Shown: positions 1,636-44,312 of the stretch, in pieces | How positions within the stretch are numbered: position 1 is the first letter of the stretch | Layout: every line of letters begins with the position of its first letter | Origin: an uncultured Acidobacteriota bacterium | GTDB taxonomy: Bacteria; Acidobacteriota; Thermoanaerobaculia; Gp7-AA8 | Assembly (NCBI GenBank): GCA_963793695.1 | Contig: CAWCBB010000028.1 | Location: forward strand, 657-64,656 | DNA: 64,000 bases | Direction of reading: 5' to 3' | Notes under the pieces: model-generated | What the model was told of the DNA's origin: nothing | The model's input: only the letters and a program-made list of their open reading frames with translations | The model's database searches: none | Program-made: the position numbers and the translations under genes

Positions 1636-2015
1636 TTCCTTCGCATCACCGAGTCGAGGATCATCAGAAACGCCTCCTGCTGCTTCGCCTCGGTCTTGTT
1701 GATGACCGCGATCGCATCTCCGATCTGGAACCTGCGGTGCAGCTCTTCGGCGGAGTGCGAGGAGGTCACCAGGATCCTCTTCGAGGGGACCCCGCGCTGA
1801 CGAGCGTACTCGACGAACTTCTGGCCGTCCATCCCCGGCATCTCGAGATCGACGATCAGAAGGTGGATCGACTCGTCGATTTTCGGCAGCGCGTCGTACG
1901 GATGGCGATACGTCTCCACCTGCGCCGCCCCCTGATATCGCTCCTCGAGGATGTTCTCGAGAAGATGGCAGAACGCGACCGAGTCGTCGACGACGACGAT
2001 CCGCTTGCCGCTCAA
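1632..2015 (-). CDS. Stand-alone response-regulator receiver domain protein (CheY-like)
   Basis: Receiver motifs KRIVVVDDS...LLIVDLEMPGMDG...KRILVTS in the C-terminal part of ORF 1632..3053. A TTG start at 2015 overlaps the pyrC stop (TTGA), and the stop overlaps the pilT start (ATGA). Confidence 0.75.
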   Translation of the reverse strand: MSGKRIVVVDDSVAFCHLLENILEERYQGAAQVETYRHPYDALPKIDESIHLLIVDLEMPGMDGQKFVEYARQRGVPSKRILVTSSHSAEELHRRFQIGDAIAVINKTEAKQQEAFLMILDSVMRRK

Positions 2016-3406
2016 CGTTTCCGTTTCTCCTTCGAGCGCCGGGCCGGCGCCGGTGGGGTGCGGGCGTCTCGCCCGCCTTTCGACTTCTCCACCACGAGCG
2101 GCGGGCGGGACGCCCGCGCCACACCGGGCTCCGCGCGGAAGCGGATCCGCCCGCCGACGATCGTGGCCGCGACGCGGCCGCGATAGCTGTTTCCGATGAA
2201 CGGAGAGTTCGACGAGCGGGACACGAACGAGCTCCCGACCTCGGTCTTCCCGGCCGGGTCGAGGATCGTGACGTCGCCGATCGCCCCCTCCCGCAGCGTC
2301 CCTCCCGGGAGCCGGAAGATCCGTGCCGGAGAGGTCGACATCAGATCGATCAGCTTCATCAGGTCGATCTTCTTCGTCTTCGCCACGAGCAGGTCGTAGC
2401 AGACGGCGAACGCCGTCTCGAGGCCGATGACGCCGAAGGGCGCCAGGTCGAACTCGACGTTCTTCTCGTCGGGGTGATGCGGAGCATGGTCCGTCGCGAT
2501 GACGTCGACCGTCCCATCGGCGACCGCGTCGACGAGAGCCCGCCGGTGCTCTTCCGAACGGAGCGGCGGGTTCATCTTGAAGTTCGTGGAGAACGACCGG
2601 ATCTCTTCGTCCGTCAGGGCGAGGTGGTGCGGGGTGGCCTCGCACGTCACGCGGAGCCCGTTCTTCTTCGCCCGGCGCACCGCGTCGAGCGCCCCGCGCG
2701 TCGAGATGTGACCGACGTGCACGTGCCCCCCGGTCAGCTCCGCGAGGATCATGTCGCGCGTCGTGAGGACGTCCTCCGAGGCGGCCGGGATCCCGCGCAT
2801 GCCGAGGAGGGTCGAGATCATGCCCTCGCTCATGACGCCGCCGTCGCTCAGATCGAGGTCCTGCTCGTGGACGACGATCGGCGCCGAGAGCATCGTCGCG
2901 TACTCGAGCGCCCGCCGCATCAGGAGCGCGTTCTTCACCGGCCTGCCGTCGTCGCTGAACGCGACGCACCCTCCCAGCCTCAGGTCGGCCATCTCGGCGA
3001 GCGCCTCTCCCGCGAGCCCGCGGCTGACCGCCCCGATCGGATAGACGCGGCACGCGCCGTTGCGCGCCGCTTCCGCCACGATCATCTCCGTCACGGCGCG
3101 CTCGTCGTTCGGCGGCACCGTGTTCGCCATCGAGCAGACCGCCGTGTAGCCGCCCGCGACCGCCGCGCGCGTCCCCGTCGCGATCGTCTCCTTGTGCTCC
3201 TGCCCCGGCTCGCGAAGGTGCGTGTGCAGATCGATCAGCCCCGGCGCGACGACCAGCCCCGCGGCGTCGAAGATCTCCACCCCTTTCGGAGCCCGTACGC
3301 CGGCGCCGACCCGGGAGATCGATCCGTCTTCGATGAGCACGTCGAGCTTCGCGTCGACGCCCCGGCCCGGGTCGACGACCCGGCCGTTCTGAATGAGCAG
3401 GTTCAT
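2012..3406 (-). CDS. pyrC: Dihydroorotase
   Basis: 464-aa ORF with GLIDLHTHLREPG, HVGHIST and ATDHAPH metal-binding motifs of the amidohydrolase/DHOase family. The last ~40 codons run through a REP doublet (2055-2123). Confidence 0.9.
   Translation of the reverse strand: MNLLIQNGRVVDPGRGVDAKLDVLIEDGSISRVGAGVRAPKGVEIFDAAGLVVAPGLIDLHTHLREPGQEHKETIATGTRAAVAGGYTAVCSMANTVPPNDERAVTEMIVAEAARNGACRVYPIGAVSRGLAGEALAEMADLRLGGCVAFSDDGRPVKNALLMRRALEYATMLSAPIVVHEQDLDLSDGGVMSEGMISTLLGMRGIPAASEDVLTTRDMILAELTGGHVHVGHISTRGALDAVRRAKKNGLRVTCEATPHHLALTDEEIRSFSTNFKMNPPLRSEEHRRALVDAVADGTVDVIATDHAPHHPDEKNVEFDLAPFGVIGLETAFAVCYDLLVAKTKKIDLMKLIDLMSTSPARIFRLPGGTLREGAIGDVTILDPAGKTEVGSSFVSRSSNSPFIGNSYRGRVAATIVGGRIRFRAEPGVARASRPPLVVEKSKGGRDARTPPAPARRSKEKRKR
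2055..2123. repeat. REP-A doublet (REPIN-like) in the 3' end of pyrC
   Basis: GGGGTGCGGGCGTCTCGCCCGCC, a 22-nt spacer, then GGCGGGCGGGACGCCCGCGCCAC. The 69 nt are read in frame as GVARASRPPLVVEKSKGGRDARTPP. Confidence 0.85.
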
Positions 3407-4368: not shown

Positions 4369-4395
4369 TTCCTGTCAGTCTATCGATCGCGTTCG

Positions 4396-4566
4396 GAAGT
4401 CAAAGGCCGGGCACGGGCGCGGGCGCGTTCACGGGCGCGGGATTCGAACCGTGATCGACTCGCAGGACAAGGTCAACGATCAACGAACATGATCTCAATC
4501 AGCAATCGTACCGCTCGGCTCCCGTGCACGCGCCCGCGCCCGTGCCCGCGCCCGGCTTTTGCGTTC
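4396..4566. repeat. Tandem-repeat-armed palindrome, hexamer GGGCRC family
   Basis: Left arm: GAAGTCAAAGG followed by 6 hexamers (CCGGGC ACGGGC GCGGGC GCGTTC ACGGGC GCGGGA) at 4407-4442. Right arm: the inverted array at 4520-4555 followed by CTTTTG. It fills the pyrR-stop to pyrB-start spacer. Confidence 0.85.
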
Positions 4567-4568
4567 CT

Positions 4569-6424: not shown

Positions 6425-6455
6425 AAAGGAGGCCGCAAGGCCTCCTTTCTTTGTG
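6425..6455 (+). terminator. Rho-independent terminator after the M23 peptidase gene
   Basis: Perfect 10-bp stem AAAGGAGGCC / GGCCTCCTTT with a GCAA tetraloop, followed by CTTTGTGT. Confidence 0.7.
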
Positions 6456-6655
6456 TCTGGGTGTCTTGGGGTCTGGGAGTCTTGGCGTCGGTCTCGGCGT
6501 CTGGGTGTCTTGGGGTCTGGGAGTCTTGGCGTCGGTCTGGGAGTCGGGCGTCTCGGCGTCGGTCTCGGCGTCTGGGCGTCTTGGGGGGGTGGACTCGTGA
6601 CTCTGGACGCCTGGACCGACTCCCAGACTCCTGGACTCCAAGACCCCAAGACTGG
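6453..6655. repeat. Tandem-repeat-armed palindrome, octamer GTCTKGGN family (largest copy)
   Basis: About 17 units at 6455-6588, with a 44-nt higher-order repeat (6455 and 6499). The inverted arm has ~8 units (..GACTCCCAGACTCCTGGACTCCAAGACCCCAAGACT) at 6590-6655. There is almost no core. Confidence 0.85.
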
Positions 6656-10139: not shown

Positions 10140-11087
10140 ATGAAACTGCCACGACTCGTCAGTCTGCTGCTCGTCGCCGCGCTCCTCGCGGGATGCACGT
10201 ACTCGCGAAGGATTCAGCGCCGCAGCGATCTCATGGGCTATCTCTATCCCGGCGCCGATGCTGCCCCGGCGACCAACCCATCCGGCGTCACCCTCCAGCT
10301 TCCGCTCAAGCTCGGCATCGCGTTCGTTCCGGGAGTCGCGACGGAGACGCGGTGCGGGCGTTGCCCCGACCGCCGTCCTGTTCCGGCGGCCAGCGAGAAA
10401 AAGCTCCTCGACATCGTGAAGAGCGCGTTTCAGGGGCGCGACTGGGTCAGCCAGATCGTCATGATCCCGTCGGTGTATCTGCGGCCGGGCGGCGGGTTCG
10501 AGAACCTCCGGCAGGCCGCGCGGATGCACGGGGTCGACGTGGTGGCCCTCGTCTCCGTCGACCAGCTCCAGTCGAGCCATCCCGAGAAGATCTCGTTCCT
10601 CTACCTCAGCGTCGTCGGCGCGTACCTGCTCCCGCTCGACCATCACGACACGCAGACCCTGATCGATGCCGCGGTCTTTCACGTGCCGAGCGAGACGTTC
10701 CTGCTTCGCGCGCCGGGTCTCAGCACGGTGAAAGGGCGCGCCGCGGCGGTCGACGTCGACCGCGACCTCGAGGCGCGCTCGGGCACGGGGCTGAAGCTCG
10801 CGATGGAGGACCTGAGCAAGAACCTCGACGTGGAGGTCGAGCAGTTCAAGTCGCAGGTCGTCAGCGGCGAGCGGAAGGACATCGACATCCGGACCGTGCT
10901 TCTCGGGCTGGTCGCCGCGAAGGCGGTTCTCGAAGCGTCGTCGCTCTCGCTCTTCCCGCATGACGGCTACTTCGTCGTCCCGCTCGCGCACCAGGCGGGG
11001 GCGTTGATGGGGCTCGGGGGCGCGGCCGTCTCGGCCGCCGTTGGCGCCGCGTCTCGCGGCGCCCGGCACGTTCTCGCGACGGATTGA
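10140..11087 (+). CDS. Lipoprotein of unknown function
   Basis: Signal peptide plus lipobox MKLPRLVSLLLVAALLAGC, with GGAGG 6 nt upstream. The C-terminal ~25 codons are encoded by a half REP-B copy (11016-11066), so the native C-terminus is uncertain. Confidence 0.6.
   Translation: MKLPRLVSLLLVAALLAGCTYSRRIQRRSDLMGYLYPGADAAPATNPSGVTLQLPLKLGIAFVPGVATETRCGRCPDRRPVPAASEKKLLDIVKSAFQGRDWVSQIVMIPSVYLRPGGGFENLRQAARMHGVDVVALVSVDQLQSSHPEKISFLYLSVVGAYLLPLDHHDTQTLIDAAVFHVPSETFLLRAPGLSTVKGRAAAVDVDRDLEARSGTGLKLAMEDLSKNLDVEVEQFKSQVVSGERKDIDIRTVLLGLVAAKAVLEASSLSLFPHDGYFVVPLAHQAGALMGLGGAAVSAAVGAASRGARHVLATD
11016..11066. repeat. Half REP-B copy (reverse orientation) in the lipoprotein gene tail
   Basis: GGGGGCGCGGCCGTCTCGGCCGCCGTTGGCGCCGCGTCTCGCGGCGCC is the reverse complement of the second half of REP-B. 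Confidence 0.8.
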
Positions 11088-17980: not shown

Positions 17981-18129
17981 GGATTGCGGATTGCAGATTA
18001 CCGATTGCAGATTGCAGATTGCAGATTACGGAGCCGAACAGGACCATCCCGGCATCATGCAAGGGAGGTGGCCTCATGCGGAGATGGCTCGTTCCGGCTT
18101 CGTAATCTGCAATCTGCAATCTGCAATGC
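17981..18129. repeat. Tandem-repeat-armed palindrome, TGCAGAT family
   Basis: 7 units (GGATTGC GGATTGC AGATTAC CGATTGC AGATTGC AGATTGC AGATTAC) at 17981-18029. 4 inverted units (GTAATCT GCAATCT GCAATCT GCAATGC) lie at 18102-18129. The core is itself an imperfect palindrome (GGAGCCGAACAGGACCATC / GATGGCTCGTTCCGGCTTC). Confidence 0.9.
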
Positions 18130-19617
18130 TACGACGCGCCGCGTGCCGGAGAGAACCGCCGGGATCGTGCGGAGGAGGATCTTGAAGTCGAGCGCGGGCG
18201 ACCAGGTGTCGATGTACTGGAGGTCGAGCTCCATCCAGCGGTCGAAGTCGACGCTGTTGCGGCCGCTCACCTGCCAGAGGCACGTCAGCCCCGGCTTCAT
18301 CGACAGGCGCCGGCGCTGCCACCGCTCGTAGGACCAGACTTCCTCCGGCAGCGGCGGCCGCGGGCCGACCAGGCTCATGTCGCCGCGCAGCACGTTCCAG
18401 AGCTGCGGGATCTCGTCGAGCGAGAACTTCCGGAGGACCCTTCCGACCTTCGTGACCCGCGGATCCTGGCTCGACTTGAACACCGGGCCGTTCATCTCGT
18501 TGAGATGCGCGATCTCCTCCCGCATCCGATGCGCGTCCTCGATCATCGTCCGGAACTTGTAGAGCGTGAAGATCCGGCCGTTGAGCCCGAGGCGCTCCTG
18601 CTTGAAGAGGACGGAGCCGGGCGAGGTGAAGCGGATCGCCAGCGCCGCGACGGCGAGCATCGGGAGCGTCATCAGGAGAAGGAACGCCGACGCGCAGACG
18701 TCGATCGACCTTTTGAGGGCGAGCTGGCTCACGTTGCTCGGCGTGGTCGTGAACGTGAGGAACGGGATCCCTTCCAGGTCCTCGAGCTCCACGCGCGCGA
18801 GGCGGTTGGGGAAGAAGTTCATCGCGATCCGGGTCTTGACGCCGAGCTCTTCGCACAGGAGAAACGTCGATCGGAGCGCGTCGAGCTTCCGCCGCGTGAC
18901 CGCGAAGGCGACCTCGTCGATCGCGTCCTTGTGCCCCTGGATCCCCTTCTCGACGAGCTGGCGGAGGTCCTCGAGGCTCCCGAGGATCTTGTAGCGGGTG
19001 TTCCAGCCGTTCGGCAGCCGGTGCCCGTCCGAGACGAACCCGAGGATCTTGTAACCCCAGTAGGGATGCTGCTCGATCGTCTCGACGATCTCGCGGCCGC
19101 GACGGCCGGTGCCGACGACGACGATCGTCCGGTAATTCATCCCGCGAGACCGGACGTACCGCGCGAGGATGCGGATCGCGGAACGGTTGAGGGTGAGCAG
19201 GACGCCCGCGAAGATCGGGAAGAGGATGAACCAGGTGCGCGAGAGGAGCTCGAGCCGGAGAAGATAGGCGATCGCGGCGAGCAGGAGCGTGCCGATCCCG
19301 ACGATGTGGAGCACGTCGCGGATCTCGTGGCGGATCGGGATCGTGCGGTGGCTGTGGTAGCTCTGGTGCGAGAAGAAGAGGAGCGTCCACAGGATCAGCG
19401 CGACCGGAAGGAGCTTCGCGTACTCGAGGAACGGGTAGAGGCCGGTGGGGAACGCGTGGGGGGCGATCAGCGGAAACAGGACGTCGCGGACCCAGAAGGC
19501 CAGAAAGAATGCGCCGGCGGTCAGCACGACATCGCTGAGGTAAACCAGCCTTCTGACGAGTCTTGCGTGCTGCTTGAGCATTCGCTTCCGGTTCCGCCCT
19601 GCCGCCGTCCGGCGCAA
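18055..19617 (-). CDS. Undecaprenyl-phosphate sugar phosphotransferase (WbaP/EpsB-type initiating transferase)
   Basis: 520-aa ORF with N-terminal TM helices and the C-terminal bacterial sugar transferase motifs FKFRTM, GPRPPLPEEV and KPGLTCLWQVSGRN. The last ~25 codons read through the right arm and core of a TGCAGAT element, so the native stop is probably near 18130. Confidence 0.85.
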   Translation of the reverse strand: MRRTAAGRNRKRMLKQHARLVRRLVYLSDVVLTAGAFFLAFWVRDVLFPLIAPHAFPTGLYPFLEYAKLLPVALILWTLLFFSHQSYHSHRTIPIRHEIRDVLHIVGIGTLLLAAIAYLLRLELLSRTWFILFPIFAGVLLTLNRSAIRILARYVRSRGMNYRTIVVVGTGRRGREIVETIEQHPYWGYKILGFVSDGHRLPNGWNTRYKILGSLEDLRQLVEKGIQGHKDAIDEVAFAVTRRKLDALRSTFLLCEELGVKTRIAMNFFPNRLARVELEDLEGIPFLTFTTTPSNVSQLALKRSIDVCASAFLLLMTLPMLAVAALAIRFTSPGSVLFKQERLGLNGRIFTLYKFRTMIEDAHRMREEIAHLNEMNGPVFKSSQDPRVTKVGRVLRKFSLDEIPQLWNVLRGDMSLVGPRPPLPEEVWSYERWQRRRLSMKPGLTCLWQVSGRNSVDFDRWMELDLQYIDTWSPALDFKILLRTIPAVLSGTRRVVALQIADCRLRSRNEPSPHEATSLA

Positions 19618-19786: not shown

Positions 19787-21046
19787 TCAGCGGGCCGCAA
19801 TCTCCCGGAACAACGCCTCGTAGGCGTCGACGACGCCCTCCCACGCGTAGTTCGCCCGTGCCCGTGCCCGTGCCCGTGCCCGGATCTCCGTGTCGTCCGA
19901 AGCGAGCGCGTCCGCGAGAACACGCGGGAACGAAGCCTCCCCCTCGAATCGGAAGTACCGGACCGACTCTCCCCCGACCTCCCGGTTCTCCGGCGTATCG
20001 AGCGCGAGCACGGCGCCGTTCGATCCCATCGCTTCGATCAGCGCCGGATGCGTCCCGCCGACCTCGGTCGCCTGGATGTAGATGCGCGCGCTCCGCTGCA
20101 GCGTCCGGTAATCGGCTCCGTAAATTGCGCCGGGGAGGATGACGCGCCCGCAGGGACTGCCTGCGGCGGTCCGTTTCCCGGCTGCGACTTCCTCGAGCCG
20201 CCTGATCAGCTCACTCGAATACGGCGCGCTCCCCACCATGACGAGCGGCAGATCGGTCGCCACGCGACGGAACGCCTCCGCGACCTCGAGCGGATGATTC
20301 TCCGGTTCGAAGCGGCTGACGTAGAGGACGTACCTCTCGGCCTCGAGCCCCAGCCGGTCGAGCACATCGCTATCCGGCTCCTCGGGGAAGTCCGATCCGT
20401 ACGCGATCGTCTCGGCTTCCACGGCGAACGCGTCGCGGTAGTACCGCGCGATCGTCGACGCGTCGGCGACGACGCGCGTCGAGAAGTGCGCCGCGAGCGC
20501 CTCCCCCGTCAGATAGACGACCTTCCCGAGGGCGTTCCACTTCTTCCTCTTCCGTTCGATGCCGTCGACGTTGGTCGCGACGGGAAACCGCGCGGCGCGG
20601 AGGATCGGGAGCACGAATGCGTTCGCCGCGTTGCACAAAAGGATCGCGTCGAACGTGTGCGCCGCCCGGTGTGGTGCGGGCGTCTCGCCCGCCCCTGGTT
20701 GGGCGGCTTCGTTCGAAGGGAGGCGGGCGAGGACGCCCGCACCACACGAGCCCTCGATCGCGCCGTTTTCGCGAATTGCACCCACGAAGATCGCGTGCAG
20801 CGCCGAGAGAAACGCATGCGAGACCGTCTCGAGGTACTTCTGCTCGATCGCGGGAAGGTGGACGAGCTCGATCCCTTCCCACGAAGCGGGTCGCTCGGGA
20901 TAGAGATACGAGCGGCAGTAGACCGTGACGCGGTGGCCGCGCGCGACGAGCCTGGTCCCGAGCTCCGCCGCGAACGTCTCGAATCCGCCGTAGCGCGGCG
21001 GGACCCCGCGCGTGCCGAGGATGGCGATCGAGAGAGGCGTCGGCAT
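19787..21046 (-). CDS. Glycosyltransferase family 4
   Basis: MPTPLSIAILGTRGVPPRYGGFETF N-terminus and GT4 C-terminal motifs (YIQATEVGGTHPALIEAMG). It carries three repeat insertions that keep the frame: REP doublet 20671-20745, REP 20150-20182, and (CCCGTG)4 at 19855-19878. Confidence 0.8.
   Translation of the reverse strand: MPTPLSIAILGTRGVPPRYGGFETFAAELGTRLVARGHRVTVYCRSYLYPERPASWEGIELVHLPAIEQKYLETVSHAFLSALHAIFVGAIRENGAIEGSCGAGVLARLPSNEAAQPGAGETPAPHRAAHTFDAILLCNAANAFVLPILRAARFPVATNVDGIERKRKKWNALGKVVYLTGEALAAHFSTRVVADASTIARYYRDAFAVEAETIAYGSDFPEEPDSDVLDRLGLEAERYVLYVSRFEPENHPLEVAEAFRRVATDLPLVMVGSAPYSSELIRRLEEVAAGKRTAAGSPCGRVILPGAIYGADYRTLQRSARIYIQATEVGGTHPALIEAMGSNGAVLALDTPENREVGGESVRYFRFEGEASFPRVLADALASDDTEIRARARARARANYAWEGVVDAYEALFREIAAR
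19855..19878. repeat. (CCCGTG)4 hexamer run inside the GT4 coding sequence
   Basis: It reads as ..IRARARARARA.. in frame. It is the same unit as the GGGCRC arm family, in reverse complement. Confidence 0.7.
20150..20182 (+). repeat. REP (GCAG variant) inside the GT4 gene
   Basis: GCAGGGACTGCC TGC GGCGGTCCGTTTCCCGGC. It is 33 nt, in frame (AGKRTAAGSPC on the coding strand). Confidence 0.8.
20671..20745. repeat. REP-A doublet inside the GT4 gene
   Basis: GTGGTGCGGGCGTCTCGCCCGCCC, a 27-nt spacer, then GGCGGGCGAGGACGCCCGCACCAC. It is 75 nt, or 25 codons, in frame. Confidence 0.9.
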
Positions 21047-22014: not shown

Positions 22015-22946
22015 CGCCGCCACGCCTGAGAGAGCACCCGCCGGTACGCCGCGATCGCCTCGCCCTTCGGCGCCGCGCCGGTTCCGATCCCCACGGCCGC
22101 CGCTCCGATCCGGAGGATCATCCCGCCGACGACCGCCATCCGCACTCGTTCCGCATCCTTCTTCCCGAGCCATTTTCCCGCGTAGCGATAGAGATTGCGA
22201 TACCAGAGCTCGAGGAACCCGCCGAGCCCGAGGACCGCGAGCGAGGAGCCGCCCGCATGAACGACGCGCGCCGAAGGGACCAGGTAGAGCCGCGCGCCGG
22301 AATCGTGGATGCGCCGCGAGTAGTCGACGTCCTCGAACCAGGCGGGGAGGAACCTCTCGTCGAACGAGCCGATCGAGTCGAGCGTCTCTTTCCGCAGCAT
22401 GAGCGCGGCCGCCGCCGGCTGCTCGATCGCCTGCGTGCGCGTCAGGTCGAGCCCGCCGTAGCGGTAATGCCTCGACGCGCGGTTCGCCGGGTGGATCTTC
22501 TCGAAGAGGAGCACGTCCGCGAGGATGCTCCGGAGCGTCGGAAAGCGGCGCAGCTGAAACTCGCTCTGCGGCTCCCCGTCCTCGCCGATGAGCAGCGGGG
22601 CCGCTCCCGCCGCCGCGTTCCCGTCGAGAAACGCGACGAGCGTCTCGATCGACCCCGGCTGCGGCTCGCAATCGGGATTCAGAAGGAAGAGATACCTTCC
22701 CCGCACCCGCGGCAGCACGTCGTTGATCGCCCCCGCGAACCCCCGGTTCGTCCGCGACTCGACGAGCTCGGTTCCCTCGAGATCGACCCTCGCCGCGATC
22801 GCCGCGCTCTCATCGCCGGACGCGTTGTCCCAGACGATCGTCTCGAACGATCGCGCGCCCGCGGCCGCGGGGATCGCCCGCAGGCAGCGCTCGATCCAGG
22901 GAGCGCTGTTCCAGGAAACGACGAGGATCGAGACGTCGGGAGTCAT
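21987..22946 (-). CDS. Glycosyltransferase family 2
   Basis: VSILVVSWNS, DNASGDES, NRGFAGAIN, LLNPD and FEDVDY. The start codon directly abuts a repeat arm. Confidence 0.8.
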   Translation of the reverse strand: MTPDVSILVVSWNSAPWIERCLRAIPAAAGARSFETIVWDNASGDESAAIAARVDLEGTELVESRTNRGFAGAINDVLPRVRGRYLFLLNPDCEPQPGSIETLVAFLDGNAAAGAAPLLIGEDGEPQSEFQLRRFPTLRSILADVLLFEKIHPANRASRHYRYGGLDLTRTQAIEQPAAAALMLRKETLDSIGSFDERFLPAWFEDVDYSRRIHDSGARLYLVPSARVVHAGGSSLAVLGLGGFLELWYRNLYRYAGKWLGKKDAERVRMAVVGGMILRIGAAAVGIGTGAAPKGEAIAAYRRVLSQAWRRWDETSQRS

Positions 22947-23094
22947 TGCAGATTGCTGATCGCAGATTGCAGATTGAAAGTCAAAAACCGGGCGCGGGCG
23001 CGTTCACGGGCGCGCCCCCCTCGCCCCGTGAGCGAAGCGAACGGGGAGAGGGGCCGGGGGTGAGGGGCAATCTGCAATCTGCAATCTGCAATCA
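22947..23094. repeat. Tandem-repeat-armed palindrome, TGCAGAT family, with nested modules
   Basis: Left arm TGCAGAT TGCTGAT CGCAGAT TGCAGAT at 22947-22974. Right arm GCAATCT x3 plus GCAATCA at 23067-23094. Inside are a single GGGCRC arm (GAAAGTCAAAAACCGGGCGCGGGCGCGTTCACGGGCGCG, 22973-23013) and a CCCCGT..ACGGGGAGAGGGGCCGGGGGTGAGGGG box (23015-23067). Confidence 0.9.
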
Positions 23095-25079: not shown

Positions 25080-25100
25080 TGTTGATCGCCGTTTGTCGTT

Positions 25101-25127
25101 GAATTGCAGATTGCAGATTGCAGATTA
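25101..25127. repeat. One-armed TGCAGAT array
   Basis: TGCAGAT x3 at 25105-25125, between the stop at 25125-25127 and the start at 25079. I see no inverted partner. Confidence 0.7.
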
Positions 25128-27187
25128 CCGATCCCGTTCGATGCGATCGAACGTGATCGCGCCGCGAGTCACGCGAATCGCGGGCCGTTGGTGCTGACGT
25201 TCAGTGGGAAGTTTGACGAAGCCGTCGCCCGTCGGCGGTACTTCGTGGATCCGGCCGTCGATCTCGAAAGACCCTCCATTCTCCGCGCGCACGTGGATCG
25301 TCGCGGGCCCCGGCTGCATGCGGAAGCGCATCGATTCGCCTTCGCCGAGCCGCCACCCTCCCGTGAAGCGGAAGCGCGCGACGGTCCAGATCTCCGGGTC
25401 GAGCAGGCCCTGGCGGTGATCGACGTGCACGTCTTCGAATTGAACCACGGAACCGGGGCGCAGCCCCGCCGCGAGGAAGAGCGTGAGCGCGAGAGCTGCG
25501 ACGATCGCGGCGGCGCGGCCTGTGGTGCGGGCGTCCGCCCGCCCAGGAGGGCGGCATCCCCCACCCGAGGCGGGCGAGACGCCCGCACCACACCGAACGC
25601 CACGATCGCGATGAGCAGCAGGATCGCCGCGGCCCACGCCGCGCCGTTCGGCCGGATGAAGCTCGGCAGCAGCCGCGAGAAATCGCTTCCGAAACGGATC
25701 GACAGCCATTCGCCGAGCACCGACTCGCCGCTCGCGATGTGGAAGAGGCGCCAGGGGAACGCGACGCCGTGGACGGCGAGGAGCGCGGTCCAGACCGCGA
25801 CGGGCGCGAGCCATGCGCGCGTCCGCTCGAGCAGCGCGCCCGCGGAGACCGCGACCAGCGGCGCGAACACGACCAGATAGCGCAGCGGCGGCGACCAGCC
25901 GCCATGCCACTCTTCGCGCGGCAGGAGGAGGATCAGATACGGGACAGCGGCGATCGAAGCTGCACGGATCGCGAAGTGACTCGTTCTCCGTTCTCCGTTC
26001 TCCGTTCTCCGCGGCAGGGGCTCGTCTTGCGCCGACGGAACGGCGTTTGCGCCGGAGAACGGAGAACGGAGAACGGAGAACGCCTTTGTGAGAGCAGCAA
26101 CGAGTGCCGCGAACCAGACAGGCGCTTGCAGCAGCATCCCCGCCTGCCCGTCGAGGAGCAGCCCGAACATGCCGCGCGCGTATTTCCAGAGCGACGCCGG
26201 CGCGAGCTCACTCCACCGATGCACCTGGAGAGGGTTGCCGACCAGGAGCCAGCCGCCGAGGAGCGGAAGGGCGACGACCGCCGCGAGCGCGAGCGCGAGT
26301 TTCCGCGCGCCTCGGTCGGAGATCACGACGACGAGCGCGAACACGGCCGCGATCGCCATGAAGCGGAGTTGCAGGAGCGAGAGAGCGACGAGCCACGCCG
26401 CCAGCCGGCCGTACTTCCGCTTCCCCGCGGCCCGCATCGCTTCGCTCAGGCAGAGGGCTCCCGGAACCTCCGGCCAGATGCGCACCGCGTAGAAAAGGAA
26501 GGGAGGGGCGAACGCGAGGAGCGGCCAGAGGCGAAGCGCCGCCTTGCGGGAAACGCCGTGCTCCTCGGTGAGCGCGAAAATCGATCCGACGGCGGCCGCG
26601 CCGAGGAGCGCGATCGTCGCCATGGCGCCCCATAGGCCGCCGAGGGCGACCCCCGGGACGAGCAGGAGCGGCAGGAACGGCTCGTGCCGCGCGTAGATCT
26701 CCCCCGCCGGCCCGACGGGATCGAACGGCTGCGGCTGGAGATCCAACCGCTGCGTCGCGGACCGCTCGAGGTGCGCGTACTGGTTCGCGAGATCGAGATC
26801 GCGGTCGTGAAGGATCGACTCCGCGATCAGCACGTAGTACGGCTCGTCGCCGTCGATCGGCCAGGCGAGCGTCTCGGTTCCCACGATCAGGAAGATCGCG
26901 GCGGCGAAGACCGCGGCCGCGCGCGGCGACCACCGCACTTCGCCTGCGGGAACGAGCGCGCACCAGAGAAGGAAGTGCGCGAGCTTCGCCGCGACGACGA
27001 TCGCGAGGAGAAGCGAGGGGGCTAGATGGACCCCGAGCGCGCCGGCGGAAGCGAGGGAGCCGCCGAGGGCGACCCACGTCGCCACGTCGGAGATCACGAA
27101 GCGGCGGCGATGGAGAGGGAGAAACCAGTGCGGCGCGGCGCTGATCAGCGCCGCGAAAAGGATGAGGAGGATCTGCTCGCGCGTCAT
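25125..27187 (-). CDS. Large polytopic GT-C-like (ArnT/PMT_2-like) membrane glycosyltransferase, frame switched at a REP doublet
   Basis: More than 12 hydrophobic segments and a DGDEPYYVLIAESIL first-loop motif. ORF 25169..27187 is protein-like down to the REP doublet at 25522-25591. Downstream of it, the protein-like frame is that of ORF 25125..25910 (..VVQFEDVHVDHRQGLLDPEIW..). The gene also contains the 99-nt GGAGAAC palindrome at 25983-26081 in frame. Confidence 0.6.
25522..25591. repeat. REP-A doublet inside the GT-C gene, 70 nt, coincident with the frame switch
   Basis: The first hairpin reads GCGGGCGTCCGCCCGC, one nt shorter than GCGGGCGTCTCGCCCGC in the other copies. Confidence 0.85.
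25983..26081. repeat. Tandem-repeat-armed palindrome, GGAGAAC family, inside a CDS
   Basis: GTTCTCC x4 (25983-26010), a 43-nt core, then GGAGAAC x4 (26054-26081). The total is 99 nt, or 33 codons, read through in frame as SVLRSPFSGANAVPSAQDEPLPRRTENGERR. Confidence 0.9.
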
Positions 27188-28923
27188 CGCGGCGCGACCT
27201 CCATCCTCTCGATCTGGAGGCGCGCTCCGGGCGGGAGCGCGCGGTCGGCCGCGACGATCATCCTGCCGATCGGCCGTTCGAGGCGGACCCGCAGCCGCCC
27301 CTCGCCGCGCAGCGACGCCTCGCGACCTTCACCGCCGATCGTCCATCCCGGACTCCGCGGCAGAGGATTCCGCGTGCGGAAGAGATCGCCGCTTCGAAAG
27401 GCGCCCCAGTCGGCGATCTCGCCGGCGCGGATCGGCCGCGCCCAGGCCTCCCCCGCCGCGTCGACGACGTCGAGGCGCCCGAGGAGCGTTCCCTCGTCGA
27501 GGCCGGAGATGTTGGCGCCCGAGATGATCACGTCGATCGCCCGGCTCTCGAGCGGCGGCTCGAGGACGAACGACTCCCCGGCGGCGATCGAAGTGAGGAC
27601 CGGCTCGACGTGTCGCGGCTCCTCGGGGAGGACGATGATGAAAACGACGAATGAGGCCGCAGCGATCGCGGACGCTGCGATCGTGGGGTGCGGGCGTCCC
27701 GCCCGCCCCCGGGTGGGGGAGGAGGCCCACGCCACCGCGATCGCCGCGACGATCGCGAACGGCACCCAGAGCTCGCGATCCGCAAAGAGCGGAAACGCGG
27801 CCGCCGCGGCGCCGCTCCACGCGGAGAGGGCGATCGCGCAGAAGAGGAGCGCGCCGGTGACGGCCGCGGCCCGTGACGCACGCGGCGACTCGCGCCGCGA
27901 CAAGACGAGGAGCGCCATCAGCGCGAGCAGCAGCGCCGGATGCGGGCGCGCGAACAGCGAGAGCGCGAAGAGGAGCGCCGCCGCGACACGCTGCCACCAT
28001 TCCGCGGGCGCGAACAAAGCCCCCGGCGCGAACCCGGCGCCGGCGATGGCCCCGGCCGCGCGGCTCGCCGTCAGCGCCGGGATGGCGATCATCGCCGCAG
28101 GGACCGGCTGCGCCGGTCCGTTTCTCCTTCGAAGAAACGTCGCCCCCGCCCGTGCCGCGAGGACGACCGCGACGCCTGCCGCCATCCACCTGCCGACGAC
28201 GAGCGCGAGAACCAGCGACGCGACCCCGAATGCAATCGCAGGGGCGCTCCGCGGGCGCCCGGAATCGCGGACCGCGAAGAACGCCAGCGCGATCGCCACC
28301 GGGATCAGCGCAGCGTCCCACGGCGCCAGCGGCGTCGCGAGGGCGATCGCGACGATGAGGAAGAAAGCCGCGAGCGACACCCCGGGTGGGGTGCGGGCGT
28401 CCTCGCCCGCCCCCGGGCGGGGGGATTCCGCGACCGCCCAGCCAGAGGCGGGCGAGGACGCCCGCACCCCACCGGTCCCTACGACCAGCGCCACGGTCCC
28501 CGCTGCCAGCAGAAGGAGCGGCGGAACCACGCTCCCGTCGAACGGAAACGCCCGCGTCGCCACGACGAGCAACGCGAGCGCGATCGCGCGCCCCTGCGGC
28601 ACCGTCCCCTCACGCGCGACGTCGACGACCGCGATCGCGAATGCCGTCGCAAGGAGAACGCCGTAGACGAGGTGCCGCGCGGGATCCGCCGGGATCGCGA
28701 TCGCCGCGCCGAGGATCAGCGGGATCGTCAGCGCGATCCATTGCGCCGCCCCCTCCGAGACCGCGATCGCGCCCGCGACCGACGCGAGAAACACCCAGTA
28801 CGGCAGAGCGGCGTCGGTGCCGCTCGTGAACCCGGCCAGCCGGGCCACCGCGAACGCGAGGGCGCAGCCGGCCAGAGCGAGGAGAAAGGCGCCGGGTCCA
28901 CGATTCGCCGTCACGTCCGGCAC
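27184..28923 (-). CDS. Polytopic membrane protein with C-terminal soluble domain (polymerase/ligase-like role possible)
   Basis: 579-aa ORF with a GTG start and ~12 hydrophobic segments. The stop overlaps the next start (ATGA). It contains three in-frame REP insertions (27685-27746, 28097-28127, 28385-28473). Confidence 0.5.
   Translation of the reverse strand: MPDVTANRGPGAFLLALAGCALAFAVARLAGFTSGTDAALPYWVFLASVAGAIAVSEGAAQWIALTIPLILGAAIAIPADPARHLVYGVLLATAFAIAVVDVAREGTVPQGRAIALALLVVATRAFPFDGSVVPPLLLLAAGTVALVVGTGGVRASSPASGWAVAESPRPGAGEDARTPPGVSLAAFFLIVAIALATPLAPWDAALIPVAIALAFFAVRDSGRPRSAPAIAFGVASLVLALVVGRWMAAGVAVVLAARAGATFLRRRNGPAQPVPAAMIAIPALTASRAAGAIAGAGFAPGALFAPAEWWQRVAAALLFALSLFARPHPALLLALMALLVLSRRESPRASRAAAVTGALLFCAIALSAWSGAAAAAFPLFADRELWVPFAIVAAIAVAWASSPTRGRAGRPHPTIAASAIAAASFVVFIIVLPEEPRHVEPVLTSIAAGESFVLEPPLESRAIDVIISGANISGLDEGTLLGRLDVVDAAGEAWARPIRAGEIADWGAFRSGDLFRTRNPLPRSPGWTIGGEGREASLRGEGRLRVRLERPIGRMIVAADRALPPGARLQIERMEVAPR
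27685..27746. repeat. REP-A copy with adjacent degenerate partner, inside a CDS
   Basis: GGGGTGCGGGCGTCCCGCCCGCCCCC followed by GGGTGGGGGAGGAGGCCCACGCCACC. Confidence 0.7.
28097..28127 (+). repeat. REP (GCAG variant) inside a CDS
   Basis: GCAGGGACCGGC TGC GCCGGTCCGTTTCTCC. Confidence 0.8.
28385..28473. repeat. REP-A doublet inside a CDS
   Basis: GGTGGGGTGCGGGCGTCCTCGCCCGCCCCC ... GAGGCGGGCGAGGACGCCCGCACCCCACC, read through as GVRASSPASGWAVAESPRPGAGEDARTPP. Confidence 0.85.
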
Positions 28924-28941
28924 TCGAGAGAGTCAGAAGAC

Positions 28942-29052
28942 AAATGCAAAATGCAAAATGCAAAATGCAAAGTCCAAGAAAGGGTCGAGGATCCTGGCGT
29001 CGAAACCCTTTTTGCATTTGTCATTTTGCATTCTGCATTTTGCATTTCTTCT
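28942..29052. repeat. Tandem-repeat-armed palindrome, AT-rich AAATGCA family
   Basis: AAATGCA x4 at 28942-28969. The inverted TTTGCAT TTGTCAT TTTGCAT TCTGCAT TTTGCAT lies at 29011-29045. The core holds the hairpin AAAGGGT..ACCCTTT. Confidence 0.9.
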
Positions 29053-34470: not shown

Positions 34471-34568
34471 GGTCTGGGGGTCTAGGGGTCCCGCGCCCGG
34501 GCCCGCGCCCGGACCCGCGCCCGGCCTTTGACTTCTGGACTCGATACCGCCCTCGCGCCTAGACTCGG
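34471..34568. repeat. Composite: octamer GGTCTGGG arms enclosing a single GGGCRC-family arm
   Basis: GGTCTGGG GGTCTAGG GGTCCCGC (34471-34494), then CCGCGC CCGGGC x3 plus TTTGACTT (34491-34534), then the inverted CTGGACTC..CTAGACTC (34535-34566). It ends about 6 nt before the dxr ATG. Confidence 0.8.
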
Positions 34569-37212: not shown

Positions 37213-37224
37213 CCGTTCGGCGAC

Positions 37225-38191
37225 GGGAGCGCGGGCGTCCTCGCCCGCCGTTGCGGCGGCGTCCCGCCGCCGATCCGCAATGGCGCCGCGGGACGCGGCG
37301 CCAACGGCGGCCGAGACGGCCGCGCCCCTGAAGGCTTTCCGAGGTACACTTTCCCTCCCACCTTCGCTCTCTGACGCTGCCTGCTTCGGCGACGTCAAAT
37401 GAGAACCACACGAACGATCCTCTATTCAACAACTGCGCATCTGAGGATCCGCGGCCGGTCCCGCCTTCCACACTTCGAGCTGGATCACGCGATCTATTTC
37501 GTCACCTGGCGACTCGCCGATTCGCTGCCGCAGCATGTCGCAGAGGATCTGCAGAAGGAATGGAAGTGGCTGGGTGAGCAGCTTCAGACGCGCGAAATGA
37601 CGCCCGCCGCACGGAGCGCTCTGTTGAGTCACTATTCGAAGACATACGAGGGGGCTCTCGACGAGGGGTTCGGCTCCTGCATTCTTTCGAATCGCGACGC
37701 GGCGCACATCGTCCAGGGAGCACTCCTCTTTTTCGACCAGCAGCGGTACGACCTGTTCGCCTGGGCGGTAATGCCCAACCACGTTCACGTCGTGTTCTTC
37801 CTTGAGAGAGGAGACCAACTGGATCGCGTACTCCATTCGTGGAAGTCGTTCACGGCACATCGAATCAACCAACGTCTCGACCGGCGCGGAAAACTGTGGC
37901 AGGACGAGTACTTCGACCGGATTGTCCGCGACGAGCGCGAGCTCGAGCAGACGATTCAATACGTGATCAACAACCCCGCCGCGGCGGGCATGCAGGACTG
38001 GCCTTTCGTCGGAGCAAAGTTCCGGGGAATTGAATAACGGAGCAGCTGCAGCTGGTGTCGGGCGTCCTCGCCCGCGACAGGGGCGCGGGCGTCCTCGCCC
38101 GCCGTTGCGGCGGCGTCCCGCCGCCGCCAGATCCGGATACAAGGCGCCGCGGGGACGCGGCGCCAACGGCGGCCGGGACGGCCGCGCCCCT
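37225..38191 (+). mobile_element. RAYT gene with flanking compound REP-B palindromes
   Basis: Left flank 37225-37329 and right flank 38080-38191 are near-identical ~105-nt units: GGG(A/G)GCGCGGGCGTCCTCGCCCGCCGTTGCGGCGGCGTCCCGCCGCCG..GGCGCCGCGGGACGCGGCGCCAACGGCGGCCG(A/G)GACGGCCGCGCCCCT. An extra half hairpin lies at 38055-38079. Confidence 0.7.
37399..38037 (+). CDS. REP-associated tyrosine transposase (RAYT, IS200/IS605-like Y1 HUH enzyme)
   Basis: 212 aa with the HUH motif PNHVHVVF, the catalytic-Tyr motif IQYVINNPAAAG, and the N-terminal RLPHFELDHAIYFVTWRL. It is flanked on both sides by compound REPs. Confidence 0.8.
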   Translation: MRTTRTILYSTTAHLRIRGRSRLPHFELDHAIYFVTWRLADSLPQHVAEDLQKEWKWLGEQLQTREMTPAARSALLSHYSKTYEGALDEGFGSCILSNRDAAHIVQGALLFFDQQRYDLFAWAVMPNHVHVVFFLERGDQLDRVLHSWKSFTAHRINQRLDRRGKLWQDEYFDRIVRDERELEQTIQYVINNPAAAGMQDWPFVGAKFRGIE

Positions 38192-38227
38192 GTGGGACCC
38201 ATCACGATCGCGAACCAACGCGCCGTG

Positions 38228-39478: not shown

Positions 39479-39507
39479 TCAGCCTCCCGTTTTGCTCCGT
39501 GGCGCGA

Positions 39508-39702
39508 ATTGCAGATTGCAGATCTCGGATTGCAGATTGGCGTCGGCCCCATCACTCCGCCATTTCAAGACTACGCGTCATGCGCCTCCCCCACCCAGAT
39601 CCCTCGCTACGCTCGGGATGACATGAGCGCGAGTAGCTGCCTCCGCGCCCGTGCACGCGCCCGCGCCCGCGCCCGGTTTTTCCAATCTGCAATCTGCAAT
39701 CA
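39508..39702. repeat. Tandem-repeat-armed palindrome, TGCAGAT family, with nested modules
   Basis: Left arm at 39508-39538. Right arm AATCTGC x2 plus AATCACG at 39684-39704, overlapping the ABC-F stop. Inside are the inverted box CCAGATCCCTCGCTACGCTCGGGATGACATG (39595-39625) and a single GGGCRC arm (39644-39683). Confidence 0.9.
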
Positions 39703-41613: not shown

Positions 41614-41623
41614 GGCGTAGGAC

Positions 41624-41761
41624 GATTGCGGATTGCAGATTGCAGATTGCAGATTACGGAGCCGGACGGAGCGTTTCTCTCTCCGAACGACCCTCGGCAC
41701 TGCAAACCACGAGCGCTAGCGTACAATTGCACCGATTCTCAATCTGCAATCTGCAATCGAC
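41624..41761. repeat. Tandem-repeat-armed palindrome, TGCAGAT family
   Basis: 5 units at 41624-41658. The inverted units GATTCTC AATCTGC AATCTGC AATCGAC lie at 41734-41761. The core begins TACGGAGCCGGAC, as in the 17981 copy. It lies between the divergent ABC-F and pdxJ starts. Confidence 0.9.
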
Positions 41762-42478: not shown

Positions 42479-42500
42479 CGCCGGCGGCTTCGCCGCCGGC

Positions 42501-42630
42501 AAATGCAAAATGCAAAATGACAAATCCAAAGGGGGAGCTCGGTTCTCTCCCTGAATCAGCGTCCCTGCCCCACGCACGGTTCTCTTTTTGGATTTTTCAT
42601 TTTGCATTTTGCATTTTGCATTTTTCTTCT
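42501..42630. repeat. Tandem-repeat-armed palindrome, AT-rich AAATGCA family
   Basis: AAATGCA AAATGCA AAATGAC AAATCCA at 42501-42528. The inverted ..CATTTTG x3.. lies at 42584-42630. It is preceded by a perfect 9-bp GC hairpin GCCGGCGGC TTC GCCGCCGGC (42480-42500). It lies between convergent genes. Confidence 0.9.
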
Positions 42631-42631
42631 G

Positions 42632-43555
42632 TCACCGCGTTCGCAGCCACTCCATCGTCACCCGCAGCCCCTCGGACAGCGGAACAGGCAACGGCAACCC
42701 CGCCGCCTTCCGCAGCTTCGATCCATCCAGCACCGACCGCATCTGCTCCCCCTTCTTCGCGGGTGCATGCGATGAGACGCCCTTCATCCCGGCTGCTTTC
42801 TGGATCCCTTCCCACAGCTGGACGACGGACGTCTCGATCCCCGTCCCGACGTTGAACACGCCCGACAGCTCCTGCTCGGAGACGGCCATATTCGCGCGGA
42901 CGACGTCGCCGACGAAGACGTAGTCGCGCGTCTGTTCGCCGCTCCCGTTGATGACGACCGGTTCGCCGGCGAGCAGCTTCCCGCCGAAGATCGCGATCAC
43001 GCCCGCCTCGCCGTCGCGCCGCTGGCGCGGGCCGTAGACGTTGCCGTAGCGGAGCGACGCCGTCTGGAGCCCGTAAACCTGCCGGTAATAGCCGAGGTAG
43101 GAGTCGAAGGCGAGCTTGGCGCAGCCGTAGGGGGAGATCGGGTTGGCGGGGTGCGACTCGTCCTGGGGCGTCGTGAGCGGCTCGCCGTACGCGGCGCCGC
43201 CGGAGGAGGCGAAAATGAACGTCTTCACGCCCGACTCGAGCGCCGCCTGCGCGAGGCGGAGCGCGCCCACGACGTTCGTCTCCGCGTCGAGCGCCGGATC
43301 CGCGACCGAGACGCGGACGTCGATCTGCGCCGCGTGGTGGTTGACGACGTCGAACTTCCCGCTCCTCACGCGATGGAGAACGCCCGGGTCGTTCAGATCG
43401 CCCTCGATGAGATCCGCCTTCGGATTGACGTTCTCGCGAACGCCGGTCGAGAGATTGTCGAGAACGGCAACCTCCCATCCTCCATCGATGTAGGCATCGG
43501 CGATGTGCGACGCGATGAACCCGGCGCCGCCGGTGACGAGGACGCGTTTTTCCAA
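42632..43555 (-). CDS. NAD-dependent epimerase/dehydratase (UDP-glucose 4-epimerase-like)
   Basis: VLVTGGAGFIASH and YGCAK (YxxxK). 307 aa with a TTG start and GAGGGA upstream. Confidence 0.85.
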   Translation of the reverse strand: MEKRVLVTGGAGFIASHIADAYIDGGWEVAVLDNLSTGVRENVNPKADLIEGDLNDPGVLHRVRSGKFDVVNHHAAQIDVRVSVADPALDAETNVVGALRLAQAALESGVKTFIFASSGGAAYGEPLTTPQDESHPANPISPYGCAKLAFDSYLGYYRQVYGLQTASLRYGNVYGPRQRRDGEAGVIAIFGGKLLAGEPVVINGSGEQTRDYVFVGDVVRANMAVSEQELSGVFNVGTGIETSVVQLWEGIQKAAGMKGVSSHAPAKKGEQMRSVLDGSKLRKAAGLPLPVPLSEGLRVTMEWLRTR

Positions 43556-43575
43556 GGTATCCCTCGATCTTGAAT

Positions 43576-43770
43576 TGCAGATTGCAGATCGCAGATCGCA
43601 GATTGCAGATTAGCTCTCTACCGCAGGCTGCGGATTATAGGATGTCATCCCGAGCGTAGCGAGGGATCTGGGCGGAGGACGCGCGTAACGCGGCTTCGTT
43701 CTCAGGCGGGATCCTCAACCCCACGCCCGATCAGCAATCCCCAATCCCCGATCCGCAATCCCCAATCCGG
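43576..43770. repeat. Tandem-repeat-armed palindrome, TGCAGAT-related, diverged right arm
   Basis: TGCAGAT/CGCAGAT x5 at 43576-43610. The box GATGTCATCCCGAGCGTAGCGAGGGATCTGG lies at 43641-43671. The right arm GATCAGC AATCCCC AATCCCC GATCCGC AATCCCC AATCCGG lies at 43729-43770. Confidence 0.8.
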
Positions 43771-44312
43771 CATATACCGATCGATAGATACCGCCTCGCC
43801 CCCTCCCCTGCCACAATCCCCCTGCGCCCTGAGCGGCGATTGCTGATCCCGCGTGGGGAACGATCTGACCGGAGCGTTCTCCCGCCTTCAGCAATCGTCG
43901 GTCCGGGCGACCGTGGAACCGATCCCCTCCCTCACCGACAATGGGTCCGGGAGCCCGGCCATTTTTCTCAGCAGCGATCCATCGAGCGCGTTCCGCGCGC
44001 GATCGTCACCGCGCGCGGGACTCCGCTCGACCGTGCCGCGCATCCCGAGCGCTTCCTGCACGATCTCCCACACGTCCGCGATCGAGGTCTCCACGCCGGT
44101 ACCGACGTTGAACGCCCCCGCGAGCCGCTGATCCGCGGCCGCCAGGTTCGCCCGTACGACGTCGCCAACGAAGATGAAGTCGCGAGTCTGCCCCCCATCC
44201 CCCGCAATCTTCGCCGCCTCCCCTCGACGCAGTGCATCCGCAAAGCGAGCAATCACCGAGCGATCCCTCGACCTCTCATTCAAAAGAGGAGCGACATCGC
44301 CGCGCGTCAGTA

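Follow-up and report, generated by a model that had tools for sequence, protein, structure and literature searches.

The 64-kb stretch analysed here (the window, to which counts refer unless another set is named; it is one part of a genome) has a GC content of about 67.5%, and the homologs of its proteins are named as Thermoanaerobaculia (Acidobacteriota), a soil lineage. Between 18 and 29 kb it carries, on the minus strand, a polysaccharide cluster made up of a Bac_transf sugar transferase, a GT4/DUF1972 glycosyltransferase, three GT2 and one GT1 glycosyltransferases, a GT-C-like membrane protein and another membrane protein, with a diaminopimelate (DAP) epimerase gene after them. Two further assemblies, L002 (GCA_040961035.1) and L085, share this arrangement of genes. 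Our subject is the GT4 gene and a palindromic element within it, a repetitive extragenic palindromic (REP) sequence of a family that we call REP-A, which is present as an inverted doublet resembling a REPIN (a REP doublet forming a hairpin) and is read through in frame.

The REP-A unit, GTGG(G)GTGCGGGCG-TC(C)T-CGCCCGCC, has a 7-bp stem, and its head conforms to the GT[AG]G pattern of REPs; other REP families in related genomes have a GTAG head. The element in the GT4 gene is a near-perfect 75-nt inverted doublet (GTGGTGCGGGCGTCTCGCCCGCC ... GGCGGGCGAGGACGCCCGCACCAC) that is translated within the open reading frame (ORF) as SCGAGVLARLPSNEAAQPGAGETPAPH and folds, on the mRNA strand, with −62.8 kcal/mol (z = −7.5). 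The 20-nt core of the family, GTGCGGGCGTCTCGCCCGCC, has seven matches in the window with at most two mismatches, against 0.01 expected from dinucleotide-preserving shuffles. A first-pass annotation of this DNA had placed a 75-nt REP-A doublet between conserved blocks of the GT4 gene, and the repeat count, the folding and the ortholog alignment all confirm it.

The host ORF matches the Pfam families Glyco_trans_4_4, Glycos_transf_1 and DUF1972. It encodes 419 residues, compared with 360–380 (typically about 370) in nearly all of the 120 homologs listed, and in the ortholog alignment the extra residues fall between LSALHA and FDxxLLCNAANAF. Every family-invariant residue is retained, and the ratio of non-synonymous to synonymous substitution rates (dN/dS) is 0.30 against the ortholog in L001 and 0.21 against that in L002. 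The insert is missing in L001, L003 and L005 and in most of the 120 homologs. L001, a contig of another sample (Logan, SRR30681586), forms with the window an unusually clean presence/absence pair: by blastn and alignment, the two are 98.1–98.5% identical over 2.8 kb on both sides of the insert, whereas at the site itself the window has 138 nt and L001 has 12. Net, the window is longer by 126 nt, or 42 codons, where 25 codons had originally been proposed. The 75-nt doublet is only the middle part of the differing block, which includes two stretches of other sequence besides, 44 and 19 nt long. Species-representative genomes, searched by a contig scan, offered nothing nearer than a 64%-identical GT4 gene.

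An AlphaFold2 model built from the ortholog alignment (mean predicted local distance difference test score (pLDDT) 83; predicted template modelling score (pTM) 0.82) has a GT-B fold and matches the solved GT4 enzymes BshA, MshA and PimA. Only two internal segments of the model have a pLDDT below 50, and these are the two inserts of the gene: residues 93–129, the large insert, flanked by helix 70–93 and strand 134–138, and residues 294–299, encoded by a second element, REP33, and flanked by helix 278–289 and strand 302–306. Because both low-confidence segments fall between a helix and a strand, they are modelled as loops joining regular elements. The inserts are thus predicted to occupy surface loops, outside the core, and the structural mapping that the first-pass annotation had suggested comes out in its favour.

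REP33 in this gene is a 33-nt hairpin (GGACyGCC-TGC-GGCGGTCC followed by GTTTCC) that adds about 10 residues (GKRTAAGSPCG). Among the orthologs aligned, only the two closest share it. A (CCCGTG)4 run elsewhere in the gene had been listed beside it. Both repeats exist, but the run is not an insertion, because the RARARARA that it encodes aligns without a gap with RxRARxR (within RxRARxRxxxRY) in all orthologs.

The loop that holds the REP-A doublet is variable well beyond this one pair. We compared the stretch of the GT4 gene from the ETVSHA anchor to the CNAAN anchor in the window and seven close relatives, taking a basal length of 86 nt. L001, L003 and L005 have no added content (+0 nt) and L085 has a short extension (+9 nt). 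GATCAAC x4 accounts for +30 nt in L086, GGAGAAC x4 is among the +102 nt of L002, and the REP-A doublet is the content of the +126 nt of the window. L083 (+135 nt) and L084 (+156 nt) each carry a doublet of a GTAG-headed REP together with GATCAAC x4. Since these contents differ among the relatives, one loop has been held by unrelated palindromic families in different lineages.

Among the genes of the window is one for a REP-associated tyrosine transposase (RAYT). The protein contains NHVHVV (the HUH motif) and YVINNP, and it matches Pfam Y1_Tnp (2e-10), NCBIfam NF047646 (81.2 bits, cut-off 80) and, in the PDB, the E. coli TnpA-REP structure 4ER8 (E = 1.6e-6); the GC content of its gene is 58.5%, lower than that of the window. 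The REP clusters on its two sides consist of a unit with two hairpins. The first of these, GCGGGCG-TCCT-CGCCCGC, is the REP-A hairpin, and the head is one base off that of REP-A (GGGGCG versus GGGGTG). The RAYT gene and its flanking clusters are a classic, complete REPtron. A cluster similar to these flanks, with no transposase, lies at 53487–53593.

The palindromes of this genome comprise REP-A and the related two-hairpin units, REP33 (a 30-nt hairpin) and hairpins made of inverted heptamer arrays. We count about 16 repeat loci between genes and 13–14 within them, and because 85–90% of the window is coding, the elements are strongly depleted from genes. REP-A has only two matches in 86 related loci (1.36 Mb) and is therefore not common to most relatives. 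In metagenome contigs, requiring an inverted partner left 13 true REP-A doublets, 12 of them intergenic.

The core pattern by itself was rejected as a specific REP marker in metagenomes. Many of its matches are native coding sequence for GSGGRDARTT in a conserved actinobacterial gene, which we take to be that of the proteasome beta subunit, and L096, L100, L125, L129 and other loci carry the exact REP-A core in this way. Such native coding is a trap for pattern-based REP searches.

The GT4 doublet is one of several intragenic copies (Table 1). The copies that the first-pass annotation had listed in the pyrC tail, the lipoprotein tail, the membrane protein (three), the GT-C-like gene (99 nt) and the epimerase paralog are all present in open frames. 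In the dihydroorotase gene, pyrC, the doublet sits in the tail beyond the amidohydrolase domain and leaves the protein 27 residues longer than P0124 and P0125, which are 78%-identical orthologs without the insert and have the same terminal RKR / KRKR end; P0122 and P0123 have related REP-coded tails. The three sites in the membrane protein all fall between hydrophobic segments of the hydropathy profile. Its doublet, a hairpin of −92.6 kcal/mol, adds 22 residues relative to L002, which has a different unit, TGTCATCCCGAGCGTAGCGAGGGATC, at the site, and L085 has a long doublet of TGTCATCCCGAGCGTAGCGAGGGATC there. The single REP-A unit adds 11 residues relative to both L002 and L085.

In the GT-C-like gene, a 99-nt heptamer hairpin (−73.2 kcal/mol) is read through; L002 has it too, and L085 lacks it. 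The epimerase paralog reads through its element (CCCTCTCCCCGC...GCGGGGAGAGGG) with about 33 extra residues relative to the in-window paralog at 42632–43555, to which it is only 36% identical. The unit in the lipoprotein gene is read through seven codons ahead of the stop. The gene itself is genuine: it encodes a rhombotarget lipoprotein (TIGR04179, 159 bits) and is absent from the syntenic L002. As a candidate GlyGly-CTERM sorting signal, its REP-coded tail (GLGGAAVSAAVGAASRGAR) was unsupported by an NCBIfam scan. The sugar-transferase ORF enters its GATTGCA hairpin by about 25 codons and then stops, and the L002 ortholog aligns to residues 1–479 of 508. The copy in the DUF2339 linker is shared with a 78%-identical ortholog, P0242 (TSTPAPAPEPAPGF), and so cannot be counted as the insertion it had been taken for.

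Table 1. Palindromic elements, host genes and related features of the window, with the evidence for each.
Feature	Position	Strand or reading	Evidence
REP-A inverted doublet (REPIN-like), focal element	20671–20745	read through on minus strand in GT4 gene	sequence, repeat count, folding
GT4/DUF1972 glycosyltransferase, host gene	19787–21046	−	Pfam, homologs, alignment, AlphaFold2, dN/dS
Full GT4 block differing from L001	20652–20789	−	blastn and alignment against L001
REP33 hairpin in GT4	20148–20180		alignment columns 341–352; model
(CCCGTG)4 run in GT4	19855–19878	−	ortholog alignment
RAYT, 212 aa	37399–38037	+	Pfam, NCBIfam, PDB, GC
REP cluster, left flank of RAYT	37220–37333		first hairpin GCGGGCGTCCTCGCCCGC equals REP-A hairpin
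REP cluster, right flank of RAYT	38074–38193		with left cluster, REPtron arrangement
REP-A doublet, C-terminal tail of pyrC, gene 2012–3406(−)	2055–2123 (69 nt)		ortholog alignment
REP-A doublet, membrane protein 27184–28848(−), loop between hydrophobic segments	28385–28473		alignment, hydropathy
Single REP-A unit, membrane protein 27184–28848(−)	27683–27720		11-residue gap in L002 and L085
REP33 copy, membrane protein 27184–28848(−)	28095–28124		present in L002, absent from L085
Heptamer-array hairpin (GTTCTCC x4 ... GGAGAAC x4), 99 nt, GT-C-like gene 25125–27187(−)	25982–26082		comparison with L002 and L085
Palindromic element, epimerase paralog 43888–44962(−)	44312–44371		comparison with in-window paralog
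Two-hairpin REP unit (type flanking the transposase gene), tail of rhombotarget lipoprotein, gene ~10140–11087(+)	11016–11066		translation
GATTGCA heptamer-array hairpin, 3' end of sugar-transferase ORF 18055–19581(−)	17982–18135		L002 ortholog
(GCCCGC)n-GCCCGGCTTT copy, proline-rich linker of DUF2339 gene	54752–54782		ortholog comparison
REP-A doublet at frame break, GT-C-like gene	25520–25595		tblastn with L002 protein, DNA alignment, translations
REP33 copy, 96% identical to GT4 copy, exactly at frame change of epimerase paralog	44798–44825		comparison with paralog
Heptamer-array hairpins	17982–18135, 22945–23094, 25095–25132, 28934–29047, 39506–39539, 41623–41666, 42500–42631, 43570–43612

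Across these genes, the comparison with orthologs upholds in-frame insertion for GT4, pyrC, two sites of the membrane protein and the 99-nt copy of the GT-C-like gene, and fails to do so for (CCCGTG)4 and the DUF2339 linker. In GT4, pyrC, the membrane protein and the GT-C-like gene at its 99-nt copy, the conserved protein continues in the same frame on both sides of the insert, and the dN/dS of the host genes (0.15–0.33) indicates purifying selection. The four REP-A doublets of Table 1 fold with −59 to −93 kcal/mol (z = −6 to −9), and all intragenic elements, at about 80% GC, are free of stops in six of six frames. Several of the lengths first listed for the elements themselves (62, 31, 89, 59 and 31 nt) are not multiples of three; only the net indels are.

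The intragenic copies are concentrated in the 18–29 kb cluster, as had been claimed from a count of about 9 of about 15. Our recount gives 8 of 13–14 (binomial P ~4–7e-4, post hoc), and the copies are confined to three or four of the nine genes, namely GT4, the two membrane proteins and the sugar-transferase tail. No intragenic copy occurs in the second polysaccharide-export locus at 46.9–53.1 kb. The enrichment in polysaccharide genes is real in the window and is limited to a few fast-evolving genes.

This second export locus (window 46986–54298), on the minus strand and with a GC content of 62–65%, encodes a CpsB/CapC phosphatase, a Wzc-like tyrosine kinase, Wzz and Wza, and a NusG-like gene (53729–54298) lies upstream. 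Its 430-nt leader contains an Acido-Lenti-1 RNA (53259–53304; Rfam), a REP cluster and a 48-nt inverted repeat (53250–53297 / 53671–53718). Inverted arrays of three or four heptamers (GATTGCA, TGCAATC, AAATGCA) occupy nearly every spacer of the polysaccharide operon and also occur around pdxJ and the epimerase gene.

Other repeats of the window are of further kinds. At and beyond the 3' end of the DUF2339 ORF, three tandem units of 164–166 nt (57856–58334; 86–97% identical) each terminate in a REP-A-like arm (GGCGGCGAGACGCCCGCACCAC). Runs of the hexamer (GCCCGY)n terminating in GCCCGGCTTTTG, at 4386–4442, 4514–4567, 34486–34545, 39638–39687 and 54336–54386, are intergenic and occur in both orientations, some as convergent pairs; they are terminator-like in appearance. 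Dense 8-nt periodic repeats (GTCTGGGT / GTCTTGGG variants) lie between an M23 peptidase gene and an ECF-sigma-like gene at 6431–6604. The unit ATGTCATCCCGAGCGTAGCGAGGGATC is found at 39574–39624, 43642–43692 and 53463–53489 and also in L002, L085, L009 and L011; with 16 matches in 1.36 Mb, it is widespread in related Acidobacteriota loci. Its read-through peptide is CHPERSEGS, and in L002 and L085 it lies inside the membrane-protein gene.

Taken together, these observations make it very probable that scattered REPs, stop-free in all six frames, have been filtered by selection to the loops and tails of real genes. Copies would have spread most plausibly by the action of the RAYT on single-stranded hairpins, and most would have ended between genes. 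Because the elements are stop-free in every frame, any copy that lands in a gene would be read through, and one in three would keep the frame. Survival would then hinge only on a net length that is a multiple of three and on a location to which a Gly/Ala/Arg/Pro-rich peptide is harmless; out-of-frame insertions would be purged or would yield pseudogenes. Selection would thus leave copies in the surface loops of the glycosyltransferase, in the loops that connect membrane helices and in C-terminal tails that are disordered. A loop that has already been lengthened may tolerate more insertions, and its hairpins may draw further ones, which would account for the finding that the elements in a given loop differ from lineage to lineage. 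The peptide encoded by a REP-A arm varies by gene (GAGETPAPH, GAGEDARTPP, GRAGRPHPT and GGRDARTPP), with no conserved peptide in a fixed frame. One and the same arm is translated in several frames, depending on the gene, so that no particular peptide is being selected.

Several points weigh against this reading. We infer mobilisation by the RAYT only from its co-occurrence with the elements. Translation of the inserts is also inferred, and the dN/dS of the host genes (0.15–0.33) lends indirect support to the host proteins being made. At the GT4 site, the difference from L001 is a replacement (138 versus 12 nt) and no simple insertion. A target-site duplication or a clean empty site was sought against the relatives at the GT4, membrane-protein and GT-C sites, and none was found. 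The hairpins within genes surpass the genes themselves in conservation, which passive tolerance does not predict. Finally, the assembly is not base-perfect.

In one alternative, the repeats would have arisen or been swapped in place, instead of being inserted by a transposase, either by recombination or gene conversion with other copies or with alleles of other lineages, or by slippage and hairpin-templated synthesis in loops that varied already. The lack of target duplications speaks for it. The membrane-protein site, like that in GT4, resembles a replacement, and the heptamer arrays are classic slippage products whose units change in concert. The L001 loop (GAGYD) is, moreover, like that of more distant orthologs and not the product of a precise excision. 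Yet dispersed intergenic copies and the units at the flanks of the RAYT gene have nearly the same sequence as the inserts, which points to the spread of a family and not to local invention, and recombination would still require a donor copy at the homologous site. We regard an origin in place as unlikely.

The conservation of the hairpins raises a different alternative, in which intragenic hairpins are kept for a role as nucleic acid and the peptide is a by-product. The 99-nt hairpin of the GT-C-like gene and about 20 nt of flanks (window 25970–26090) are 98–100% identical to L002 over about 120 nt, whereas the whole gene is 82.8% identical; no mismatch in about 120 nt has a probability of P ~1e-10 at that level of identity, and such conservation goes far beyond what would be expected of neutral or coding sequence. 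In the REP33 copy of the membrane protein, the window and L002 share a 22-nt core without any difference, whereas identity in the rest of that stretch is 55–65%. REP33 stems differ compensatorily between copies (CGCC/GGCG versus CGGC/GCCG), and each of the three copies in the window lies within a gene, all with one orientation. The orthologous spacers of L002 and L085 have the same hairpin architecture built from other heptamers, with both arms altered together (AAATGCA versus GAATGCA). The presence of unrelated hairpins in the same loops of different lineages would also fit. Against such a role, the GT4 doublet is missing in a 98%-identical relative with no substitute seen, the 99-nt hairpin is lacking in L085, and typical orthologs carry no insert at all. 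High identity could arise just as well if copies of a shared, active family had recently spread or been homogenised, and the sample is a small one, a handful of loci.

The excess conservation and the paired changes of the arms are compatible both with selection on the hairpin and with recent homogenisation, and on balance we find a nucleic-acid role rather doubtful. If there were one, the candidates in a polysaccharide operon would be RNA processing or decay, a barrier to antisense or read-through transcription, a pause in the translation of membrane proteins, or sites for gyrase or other proteins on DNA. By extension, the hairpins of the operon, both between and inside genes, could be selected as structures, with the protein loops acting as reusable 'sockets' for different families. 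This would account for the 120-nt identity with L002, the compensatory arms of the spacers and the repeated occupation of the loops, but we consider it a long shot.

The quality of the assembly bears on a third alternative, that the intragenic copies are artefacts or lie in dead genes, so that 'in frame' would be meaningless. Frame breaks are certainly present. In the GT-C-like gene, tblastn places residues 1–519 of the L002 protein in frame −1 and residues 575–682 in frame −3, with the switch in or beside a REP-A doublet; the window is 17 nt longer than L002 there, and one added base in the loop of the right arm would restore the frame. The out-of-frame C-terminal part keeps a dN/dS of 0.15, and the break is therefore recent or artefactual. 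A REP33 copy coincides with the point at which the N-terminal Rossmann segment of the epimerase paralog, a gene with a weak coding signal, shifts frame. These two copies had not been listed in the first-pass annotation, whose statement that the elements do not break the frame holds for several copies and fails for these. Further frameshifts affect cdsA near 34130 (one surplus base in GGCACGCCACCGC), dxr near 35355 (at a GACCGACCGAC repeat) and the DUF2339 gene at 54488–57756 (at least three frame changes relative to P0242). Both the sugar-transferase and dxr ORFs had been described as ending in element arms; that of the sugar transferase does, whereas dxr is frameshifted.

Frameshifts in conserved, probably essential genes suggest assembly indel errors, or else pseudogenes, and it is those in cdsA, dxr and DUF2339 that show the assembly to be imperfect. 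Two of at least seven frameshifts lie in repeats, which make up 1.4% of the coding DNA (P ~0.004), and the two elements at frame breaks could be either real disruptive insertions or hairpins that are error-prone in assembly. As a general account, however, artefact or gene death is highly improbable. Like in-frame elements are carried by independent assemblies of other samples, for example in GT4 by L002, L083, L084 and L086, in pyrC by P0122 and P0123, and in the membrane protein by L002 and L085; L001, too, has the REP33 insert of GT4. On either side of every in-frame insert the frame runs on and conserved residues persist, and the low dN/dS of the host genes argues in the same direction.

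The case described here extends in-frame REP insertion to the uncultured soil lineage Thermoanaerobaculia, with a pair of sequences that are 98% identical in DNA and differ by a 42-codon insert. In high-GC genomes, REP-like elements that are free of stops can freely lengthen protein loops, which is relevant to the variation of loops in glycosyltransferases and membrane proteins. The annotation of proteins in metagenome-assembled genomes is affected as well, because REP-coded peptides such as GGRDARTP and CHPERSEGS are repeat DNA and not domains. A peptide spanning ...EGSCGAGVLARLPSNEAAQPGAGETPAPHR... would be diagnostic of translation of the insert. Loop reuse and the excess conservation of hairpins, if confirmed genome-wide, are the part that deserves a dedicated study.

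Several known systems invite comparison. Cyanobacterial short tandemly repeated repetitive (STRR) sequences, reportedly described by Mazel et al. in 1990, are said to consist of tandem 7-nt units in three to four or more repeats, with several families per genome, mainly intergenic. The heptamer arrays described here differ in being inverted pairs with stems of 21–28 bp that recur in nearly every spacer of one operon, in having one intragenic array and in belonging to a different phylum.

[quoted passage not shown] Like our elements, they are small, non-autonomous repeats that can be read inside ORFs and operons without destroying them. The units here, however, are REP-like hairpins with no terminal inverted repeats of the insertion-sequence type, and they fall outside the MITE definition because no target-site duplication was found. 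Rickettsia palindromic elements (RPEs) are the textbook in-frame palindromes (PMC10969869). Like our elements, they occur in functional genes, are missing from orthologs and are located where the fold tolerates them. RPEs are about 100–150 bp, AT-rich and encode a conserved peptide in a preferred frame, whereas the elements here are 30–100 nt, about 80% GC, read in varied frames, linked to a RAYT and mostly intergenic. The first-pass annotation saw a case independent of the Rickettsia elements. The element sequences do differ, but this is not a new kind of case, as intragenic REPs were catalogued in 2013.

That catalogue (Di Nocera et al. 2013, PMC3733652) describes intragenic GTAG/CGTC REPs in Opitutus, Thauera, Rickettsia and others, over half of them dimers or groups encoding 20–30 residues, and REP arrays adjoining exopolysaccharide genes in Thauera (PMC3733652). 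The resemblance to these and to the REP/REPIN-RAYT systems of E. coli and Pseudomonas is close: GC-rich palindromes with a GT[AG]G head (here GTGG) are dispersed and mostly intergenic, inverted dimers are frequent, a single RAYT gene is flanked by REPs, and a minority of copies lie in ORFs. Relative to the REPs of Di Nocera et al., ours have an acidobacterial host and other unit sequences, several unrelated families share protein loops across lineages, and the host genes encode glycosyltransferases and membrane proteins rather than functions in DNA repair or replication. In-frame REP insertion was already known (PMC3733652), and this case is another instance of it, one in which the testable defining features of both the REP/REPIN-RAYT system and in-frame palindromic insertion are found.

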